A stretch of DNA of 22,248 bases, from IMG/VR virus record IMGVR_UViG_2778261418_000019, positions 1 to 22,248 of that record; one strand, written 5' to 3'. Under the pieces are notes generated by a model. It searched no databases and was not told the DNA's origin. It saw only the letters and a list, made by a program, of their open reading frames with translations. Positions within the stretch are counted from its first letter, which is position 1. Every line of letters starts with the position of its first letter. A program made the position numbers and the translations under genes. Of the stretch, positions 14,501-15,334 are shown one piece after another. Source of the DNA: a virus. Its lineage: Duplodnaviria; Heunggongvirae; Uroviricota; Caudoviricetes.

Positions 14501-15334
14501 TATCCGGGACTTTATCTAATATCTAACCGCGTAGGTGACGGTACTATAGGTAAGCGTGTATATTTTGAAAATAATGGTGAAGATGGACTCTATCTTTTTA
14601 TGGATGGTCATACGTCAACAACCAACCGTAAAACTATACGTTTTGCTAAACCAGAGGCTAATACAGTGATGTATGTTGGCTATAACGGAGGACTAGCACC
14701 AAACGGTAACAGTACAGACGGTGGTTCGGGTAATGATTTTAACATTCAGTATCAAGGATGGAAAAATACTGGCGGTGTTATGTCTAACGCCCCAACGTCG
14801 GGTAGTGTTTACGGCTCTCTATTCACTCAATGTACGCAGGGTCTAGATGCTGGTCCTAGTGCTGCAACTGGTGTATCTGGTCAATGGTATCAACAACGTT
14901 TTTATGATACATCAAACCGTATATTCTCACGTATCCAGACTAACAACAGCTCATGGAGTGCATGGAATCAGATCACTATGTCAGCAGTATCTGACCAGTC
15001 CGTAAAAACTATTCAGGGTGATTTAGATACTAAGGTAGCTCTATCAAATATCAATAGAATGGAATTTAAGAATTTTACATTTAATGATACTCCTGAAAAA
15101 GCTCGACGTGGTGTAATCAGCCAACAGATTATGACTATTGATCCACAGTACGTTAATAAAATTGGTGAATTGTATCATCTAGATCAAACTCCAATGCTAT
15201 TAGATGGACTCGCGGCAATTCAAGAACTATCTAAAGAGAATAACTCACTAAAAGCACAACTAGCAGACCAACAGCTACAGCTTGATGAACTACGTGCTGT
15301 AGTAACTCAATTACTAATTGCACAGAATAAATAA
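11600..15334 (+). CDS. tail fibre protein: tail-tube-like N-terminal domain, repeat-containing shaft, C-terminal intramolecular chaperone (peptidase S74-like) domain
   Basis: AAGGAA RBS. First about 145 aa are paralogous to the tube protein at 15395-15853. Two copies of a tail-fibre-repeat-like motif (ISITKGDVGLSNVTNDAQLKIASNLSD). C-terminal 114 aa carry the SDxxxK ... GVISQQ ... AAIQEL ... coiled-coil pattern of endosialidase/T5 L-shaped-fibre chaperone domains. Confidence 0.75.
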   Translation: MANQIITGGGFKLYFNNDTANRIPDNAGNEQVNELAAMPTFGVDSQVQTIEVYDSGFSEKLLSEKTASNIPITVNYVADCTAHKFLDEMTESQEEFQLTLQYDVTDGLISYSMVNGAISSYSLNGDKDSVVTKTYNFVPTEVIATNAIAPLSENLVVGSYGVGANGNDVPQYEPLTPEGNSFIKVPASQLGNPASADMMGVGLIDGNSFSSIAMTKSGTLAIYAKNQNTAWTRILTATQISDQYVPLTRTINGRALSTNISITKGDVGLSNVTNDAQLKIASNLSDLADNSIARTNLGLSRFQQYANPVGETRVVSGDGNMRLFVKNDGTWGVWNGTANASQPLPILQGGTGASTAEQARTNLGILSSSEVSNLYVPKTTTINGKALTGNISITKGDVGLSNVTNDAQLKIASNLSDVADVTTSRNNIKAPTVGGGQIIAVPAPPGVEADKYYPVIIDLSYDNISSTGAHIDLYTKSSSGGDPMNSAQFNGFVRAGGWTDRGDAGYGYYNCYAPSEKALNCILVSAKVAEDKMAVYVEGRAFPVRMRIPAFCTAFAPTATYTAGSDVVYPWGVADPMSTAVANGTRALFDFRQARPGFYMSNSSTTTPNYYIGGGGRAVLSNGMNIGENLTITAPKLTFSGNIEAGNGFIASGTGVNDFTFVSKQLNADLSTKSQSEFRTSDGAIQLVWRGVTSSDTTQFFNFNSDGTFSSPNGFLSSTGQDWNGQTSIVNRSRFLAGSVNGPDGTNVYGGTHTGFSGNYGFQIVGRQNKAFFRTIEAGTNGTWNQIPTLNLANTWAGTQSFTGNLSITGKVTSPITIEGGSPAFILNQTGTGATKYSLIGTDGNITLSKNDTFDVIKYTSSTDTLSTAAANTTLKNLSVTGNLSSTGTLTTTGSLNAQSLTTTGIVNAGSVTTTGSVNADTIVATGSIDSSSLTTTGSVTSGSLSTGTVTASGDIISSSKIVTQANYPGLYLISNRVGDGTIGKRVYFENNGEDGLYLFMDGHTSTTNRKTIRFAKPEANTVMYVGYNGGLAPNGNSTDGGSGNDFNIQYQGWKNTGGVMSNAPTSGSVYGSLFTQCTQGLDAGPSAATGVSGQWYQQRFYDTSNRIFSRIQTNNSSWSAWNQITMSAVSDQSVKTIQGDLDTKVALSNINRMEFKNFTFNDTPEKARRGVISQQIMTIDPQYVNKIGELYHLDQTPMLLDGLAAIQELSKENNSLKAQLADQQLQLDELRAVVTQLLIAQNK
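12380..12447 (+). repeat. direct repeat copy 1 (68 bp, identical to 12773-12840) inside the fibre gene
   Basis: Exact 68-nt identity read directly from the sequence; flanks also similar (about 130 bp total). Confidence 0.85.
12773..12840 (+). repeat. direct repeat copy 2 (68 bp, identical to 12380-12447)
   Basis: As above; copies are 393 bp (131 codons) apart, in frame. Confidence 0.85.

Follow-up and report, generated by a model that had tools for sequence, protein, structure and literature searches.

The tail fibre gene of a Caudoviricetes virus, found in IMG/VR record IMGVR_UViG_2778261418_000019, very probably encodes at its 3′ end a functional intramolecular chaperone of the peptidase S74 family, which would trimerise the fibre chains, template the folding of the tip and then cut itself off at the V1130-S1131 bond. 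The whole stretch analysed, 22,248 nucleotides (nt; positions 1 to 22,248 of the record), is termed the window. The fibre gene is complete (11600..15334, + strand; 1244 amino acids (aa) and a TAA stop codon); it was taken from the list of open reading frames (ORFs), and its product matches tail fibre families of the PHROG database. Codon 1131 begins at base 14990, and the last 114 residues, aa 1131-1244 (14990..15331, + strand; 12.9 kDa), are SDQSVKTIQGDLDTKVALSNINRMEFKNFTFNDTPEKARRGVISQQIMTIDPQYVNKIGELYHLDQTPMLLDGLAAIQELSKENNSLKAQLADQQLQLDELRAVVTQLLIAQNK. The same protein begins with a domain related to tail tube proteins, and fibres of this type are referred to below as tube-headed.

Family membership and fold of the fibre C-terminus

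The original prediction, made from the letters of the DNA, had assigned positions 14990-15334, i.e., the last 114 aa, to an S74-type chaperone domain, and this is borne out by both a profile match and a fold match. The profile search that had been proposed as a check, against the peptidase S74 / chaperone-of-endosialidase family, returned a match above the gathering score rather than an empty result. Residues 1131-1185 align with positions 1-57 of the 58-position profile of the Pfam family Peptidase_S74 (PF13884, “Chaperone of endosialidase”), and position 1 of this profile falls on S1131. The score is 27.4 bits for the whole protein and 32.8 bits for the 114-aa tail alone, and the curated cut-off (gathering score) is 22. 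PHROG tail-fibre families match the tail of the fibre by their own C-termini (best E 2.4e-24). The domain ends fibres or tailspikes in 421 phage records by tblastn, with identities up to 55%. A large protein collection contains 239 homologues, nearly all with PF13884 and several with the NCBI name “pyocin knob domain-containing S74 family peptidase”. An NCBIfam search gave no match for the fibre, for its last 244 aa or for the upstream 149-aa ORF. The domain is situated at the extreme C-terminus of a protein of the tail-fibre PHROGs, within a siphovirus tail module. Residues 1131-1244 form an ordinary domain, well conserved and of a well-known family, and such domains are a common feature of phage fibres.

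A phmmer search of PDB sequences with the whole protein found nothing at E values up to 1. Unlike the single sequence, the family profile reached solved chains, three of which contain a chaperone domain: LtfA of the T5-like phage DT57C (8hqz_d, E 2.7e-8), the MyRF ICA domain (7dc3_A, E 4.7e-8) and another phage tail fibre (8jov_1, E 2.3e-4).

Residues 961-1244 were modelled as a monomer with AlphaFold2 on a 40-sequence homologue alignment. The chaperone region is predicted with a local confidence (pLDDT) of 80-94 and consists of a helix, beta-hairpins, a short helix, two strands and a 48-residue terminal helix; the model thus has the alpha/beta body with beta-hairpins, followed by a long C-terminal helix, that characterises the S74 family. 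Foldseek aligns it with the MyRF ICA domain (7dc3) at a probability of 1.00, a target TM score of 0.60-0.66 and a root-mean-square deviation of 1.9 Å over 117 columns. The long C-terminal helix (aa 1196-1244; 15185..15331, + strand) is a single helix in the model (model residues 236-283, pLDDT 92-94) and is presumed to form a trimeric coiled coil, as the corresponding helices of MyRF and T5 pb1 build a trimerising coiled coil (PMC8326128; PMC4690869).

Short motifs that arose by chance, combined with a generic C-terminal coiled coil, could in principle give a similar picture, and the region would then be a mere distal fibre end with no chaperone or protease role. The S-x4-K motif alone is present in 35% of shuffled tails and occurs six times in this protein, so the motifs by themselves are insufficient for the claim; S-x4-K and GxIxQ are present together in 1.2% of the shuffled tails. 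In addition, several PDB matches to the last 40 residues are to unrelated coiled coils. However the Pfam match exceeds the curated cut-off and spans the whole model, and the conserved block, residues 1131-1210, lies outside of the coiled coil. The predicted fold is best matched, before all others among 48,164 chains, by the four solved chaperone domains, those of endoNF, T5 pb1, GA-1 gp12 and MyRF. This explanation is effectively refuted by the Pfam match, the conserved block and the fold match, and we consider it extremely improbable.

The Ser-Lys dyad and predicted self-cleavage

Of the 40 aligned homologues, 39 cover the columns of S1131, D1132 and K1136, and each of these three residues is present in 39/39. 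The Ser-x4-Lys dyad had been placed at S1131 and K1136; these positions are exact, the residues are invariant in the homologues and they align with the dyad of MyRF. K1136 (15005..15007, + strand) is the predicted general base. The start of the domain, SDxxxK, aligns with “ADLRAK” in 7dc3, whose final K is MyRF K592, and with “SDERLK” in 8jov. The GxIxQ segment, which had also been anticipated, is found as G1171-V-I-S-Q1175 (15110..15124, + strand) and aligns with MyRF GVIAQ; G1171 and Q1175 are present in 40/40 homologues and I1173 in 34/40. Also invariant in the alignment are R1169, R1170, I1180, D1181, Y1184 and the block L1194-D-x-T-P.

The functions of the equivalent residues are established in other systems. 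MyRF is cut between P586 and S587, and both S587A and K592A abolish cleavage; S587/K592 are equivalent to endoNF S911/K916, and I637A and Q639A lead to aberrant cleavage sites (PMC8326128). In T5 pb1, Lys1269 activates Ser1264, the S1264A protein is unprocessed, and Ser1264 is lost along with the chaperone (PMC4690869). By homology to MyRF and T5 pb1, the predicted scissile bond of the fibre is V1130/S1131 (14987..14992, + strand), S1131 being the first position of the profile. The computed products are a mature chain of residues 1-1130, 118.8 kDa, and a fragment of 114 aa, 12.9 kDa, in agreement with the mature fibre of about 1130 aa and the fragment of about 13 kDa that had been predicted.

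Reasoning from the characterised homologues, the C-terminal helices of the chaperone domain would gather three nascent fibre chains, and the assembled chaperone would template the folding of the distal fibre tip. When the trimer has reached its correct fold, S1131, activated by K1136, would attack the V1130-S1131 peptide bond. The fragment would then leave each chain, and the receptor-binding tip of the mature 1130-residue fibre would be uncovered. The domain directly before the predicted cleavage site (aa ~1041-1130; 14720..14989, + strand) is probably the receptor-binding end that is exposed by release of the chaperone.

The closest known systems include the L-shaped tail fibre pb1 of T5, with a C-terminal intramolecular chaperone at residues 1264-1396 (PDB 4UW8), and DT57C LtfA, also with a C-terminal intramolecular chaperone (PDB 8HQZ). 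The chaperone domain of endoNF from phage K1F (PDB 3GW6) is the founding member of peptidase family S74. EndoNF is a podovirus tailspike enzyme in which the chaperone follows a triple beta-helix stalk with the catalytic R897, whereas the domain described here comes after the fibre tip and no equivalent arginine can be assigned. The MyRF ICA domain (PDB 7DC3) belongs to a eukaryotic membrane-bound transcription factor, and its cleavage frees a DNA-binding domain and does not serve virion fibre maturation.

Several points weigh against a functional, self-cleaving chaperone. The Pfam score of the full protein is modest at 27.4 bits, and a pairwise sequence search of the PDB gave weak matches (E 3e-3). 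The heptad a/d hydrophobicity of the terminal helix, 0.57-0.64, indicates moderate regularity only, and the model is of a monomer. Self-cleavage itself is deduced from conserved catalytic residues. The catalytic site of endoNF and T5 is completed by an arginine of the neighbouring chain (R897 and R1250, respectively), located 14 residues before the serine (PMC4690869). The nearest, and only, nearly invariant upstream arginine in the fibre, R1111, sits 20 residues upstream and not 14; the domain in which it lies is knob-like and not a triple beta-helix, and its catalytic role is uncertain. MyRF needs no arginine of this kind (PMC8326128).

These last points would fit a true S74-type chaperone fold that is not released but remains part of the mature fibre, serving permanently as a trimerisation cap or distal domain: cleavage is argued from comparison, no residue can clearly be matched to the upstream arginine of endoNF and T5 pb1, and a knob-like domain precedes the serine. 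However the conservation of the dyad in all 39 homologues, and of the same motif in 61 of the 64 chaperone-type C-termini of tube-headed fibres, is hard to account for without catalysis. MyRF cleaves without help from a stalk (PMC8326128), and T5 pb1 that retains its uncleaved chaperone no longer competes for the receptor (PMC4690869). A retained cap is therefore considered improbable, and a chaperone that cuts itself off is the favoured explanation.

A tail-tube-like domain at the fibre N-terminus

The original prediction labelled the protein simply as a fibre and overlooked its tail-tube-like N-terminus. Residues 1-145 (11600..12034, + strand) have both a tail-tube fold and sequence kinship with a genuine tube protein, the product of the gene that lies downstream of the fibre gene (15395..15853, + strand; 152 aa). 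The identity of the downstream protein as the tail tube protein is given by Pfam (Phage_tail_3, 28.1 bits; cut-off 24.2) and by PHROG (phrog_158, E 3.7e-21). Thus the fibre's N-terminal domain is a paralogue of the adjacent tube protein.

A second conserved anchor domain (aa ~146-245; 12035..12334, + strand) consists of a poorly predicted linker followed by a beta domain, with predicted strands at aa 181-237 (pLDDT 71-84). Every N-terminal homologue has it along with the tube-like domain, and beyond it the fibres diverge. The shaft (aa ~246-1040; 12335..14719, + strand) matches the tail fibre families phrog_6578 and phrog_5481 and is 38-51% identical to lateral or long tail fibres from phages of Cronobacter, Escherichia and Salmonella. 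It contains a duplication, in which a 22-residue core, GDVGLSNVTNDAQLKIASNLSD, is found twice in exact copies starting at aa 265 and aa 396 (aa 265-286 and 396-417; 12392..12457 and 12785..12850). The cores are part of larger units of ~55 aa, at ~aa 245-300 and 376-431, with the pattern YVP..T.NG.AL..NISITKGDVGLSNVTNDAQLKIASNLSD, which is also present in homologous fibres.

The tube-like domain matches 122 representative clusters. Of these, 96 have lengths of 500-1563 aa, and the domain nearly always begins within their first few residues. A chaperone-type end is found in 64 of the 96 long tube-headed fibres. This count was obtained with an iterated profile; the first local chaperone profile, which was too narrow, found 35/96. 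Pfam S74 is present in 7/7 of the longest tube-headed fibres tested. An assembly or frameshift artefact that fused two genes was considered and rejected, as the same architecture is seen in the 96 long representative clusters, where the domain lies at residues 1-150 in every case, and in independent genomes. A tblastn search of 50,697 deposited phage records with the tube-like domain gave no match, and a literature search found no description of a tube-headed fibre, which is absence of evidence only.

Phage T5 has a paralogue of the tube protein, p140, that forms a dedicated ring, and a collar of p132 around this ring holds the pb1 fibres. The authors of the T5 work remarked that fibre anchoring in lambdoid phages may differ, and a tube-like domain built into the fibre itself could be one such alternative. 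We regard it as an evenly balanced possibility that the fibre is anchored by its N-terminal domain acting as a dedicated ring in the tail tube or at one of its ends; six chains would then make up two trimeric fibres. This reading is based on the paralogy, the fold, the conserved synteny beside the tube gene and the recurrence in 96 long clusters. Compared with T5, one polypeptide would replace three proteins, the tube-like ring p140, the collar p132 and the fibre pb1.

Gene neighbourhood and distal-end strategies

The window represents the structural module of a lambda-like siphovirus, with a G+C content of 37-41%. Genes for a GpA-type terminase, a portal, a protease-capsid fusion, an FII-like head closure protein and a ~130-aa protein precede the fibre gene, and those for the 152-aa tail tube protein, chaperones, the tape measure, the distal tail protein and a J-like protein follow it. 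Matches of the 632-aa ORF (8959..10857) to major head protein and ‘major head and protease protein’ PHROGs suggest a protease/scaffold-capsid fusion; the counterpart in a relative carries Peptidase_S78 and Phage_capsid. For the ORF that separates the FII-like gene from the fibre gene (11135..11584), the public gene call starts at 11192 (130 aa), not at the GTG at 11135, and no PHROG, precomputed Pfam or NCBIfam match was obtained. From its position it may encode a tail terminator or tail completion protein. Where the window has one gene, lambda has two, Z and U.

A 10-bp stem-loop (15341..15365, + strand; arms GGTAGGGAAA/TTTCCCTACT) is found between the fibre and tube genes, 7 nt past the fibre stop codon and 30 nt ahead of the tube gene start. 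Its RNA fold has an energy of -14.5 kcal/mol (z -2.76). No T-run is present on the + strand, and the scan reported a terminator-like site only on the - strand; the stem-loop thus does not qualify as a classical terminator for the transcribed direction. An effect on mRNA stability, or on the ratio of fibre to tube expression, is possible.

The exact fibre protein is annotated on NCBI assembly GCA_002521215.1, contig NOSC01000002.1, where it maps ~7 kb from the end of the 349-kb contig. Since it sits inside a bacterial assembly contig, the element is a prophage. A megablast search of phages with the fibre gene gave no match, thus there is no close sequenced phage at the DNA level. Enterobacter, Phytobacter, Escherichia, Salmonella and Serratia are the sources of the relatives found. 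A genome scan with a single sequence found two loci. The order capsid, FII-like protein, ~130-aa protein, tube-headed fibre, tube protein, chaperones and tape measure is kept in metagenomic contigs, in Phytobacter massiliensis and in an Enterobacter species.

The distal ends of these fibres vary. An 804-aa fibre from Enterobacter (L006, 5995..8788) is without S74 and is followed, before the tube gene, by a separate 125-aa gene for a Caudo_TAP fibre assembly chaperone. A fibre from Phytobacter (L005, 6001..9549) ends in a Phage_tail_C_2 domain, and in a metagenomic contig (L002, 1149..3524) the fibre is split between two genes, a proximal one of 462 aa and a distal one of 311 aa, the latter with S74. 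In the window S74 is present and no separate chaperone gene lies between the fibre and tube genes, which fits tip-plus-chaperone cassettes that are swapped as units. This comparison lends support to a chaperone role of the S74 domain. The family combines one conserved anchor with interchangeable chaperone strategies, the variants being S74 tails, separate Caudo_TAP genes and split fibres. Fibres named ‘Pyocin knob domain-containing S74 family peptidase’, from prophages or tailocins of Enterobacter, Citrobacter and Escherichia, come closest in sequence to the last ~150 residues (50-60% identity). These share the tip-plus-S74 cassette but are short (~380 aa) and without the tube-like N-terminal anchor, and the cassette appears to have been exchanged among different fibre backbones.

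The S74 finding would place the end of the mature fibre at residue 1130 and its probable receptor-binding tip in the domain just upstream, ~1041-1130, and recombinant production of the fibre would have to include residues 1131-1244 for correct folding. With respect to S74 domains in general, this one brings nothing new. The tube-headed anchor is the more unusual feature, and deserves follow-up over the S74 domain. A fibre headed by a tube domain suggests a direct, covalent way in which lambda-like siphoviruses may anchor their lateral fibres. If true, this would represent an undescribed mode of lateral-fibre attachment in these viruses, with the S74 domain acting at the other end of the chain.
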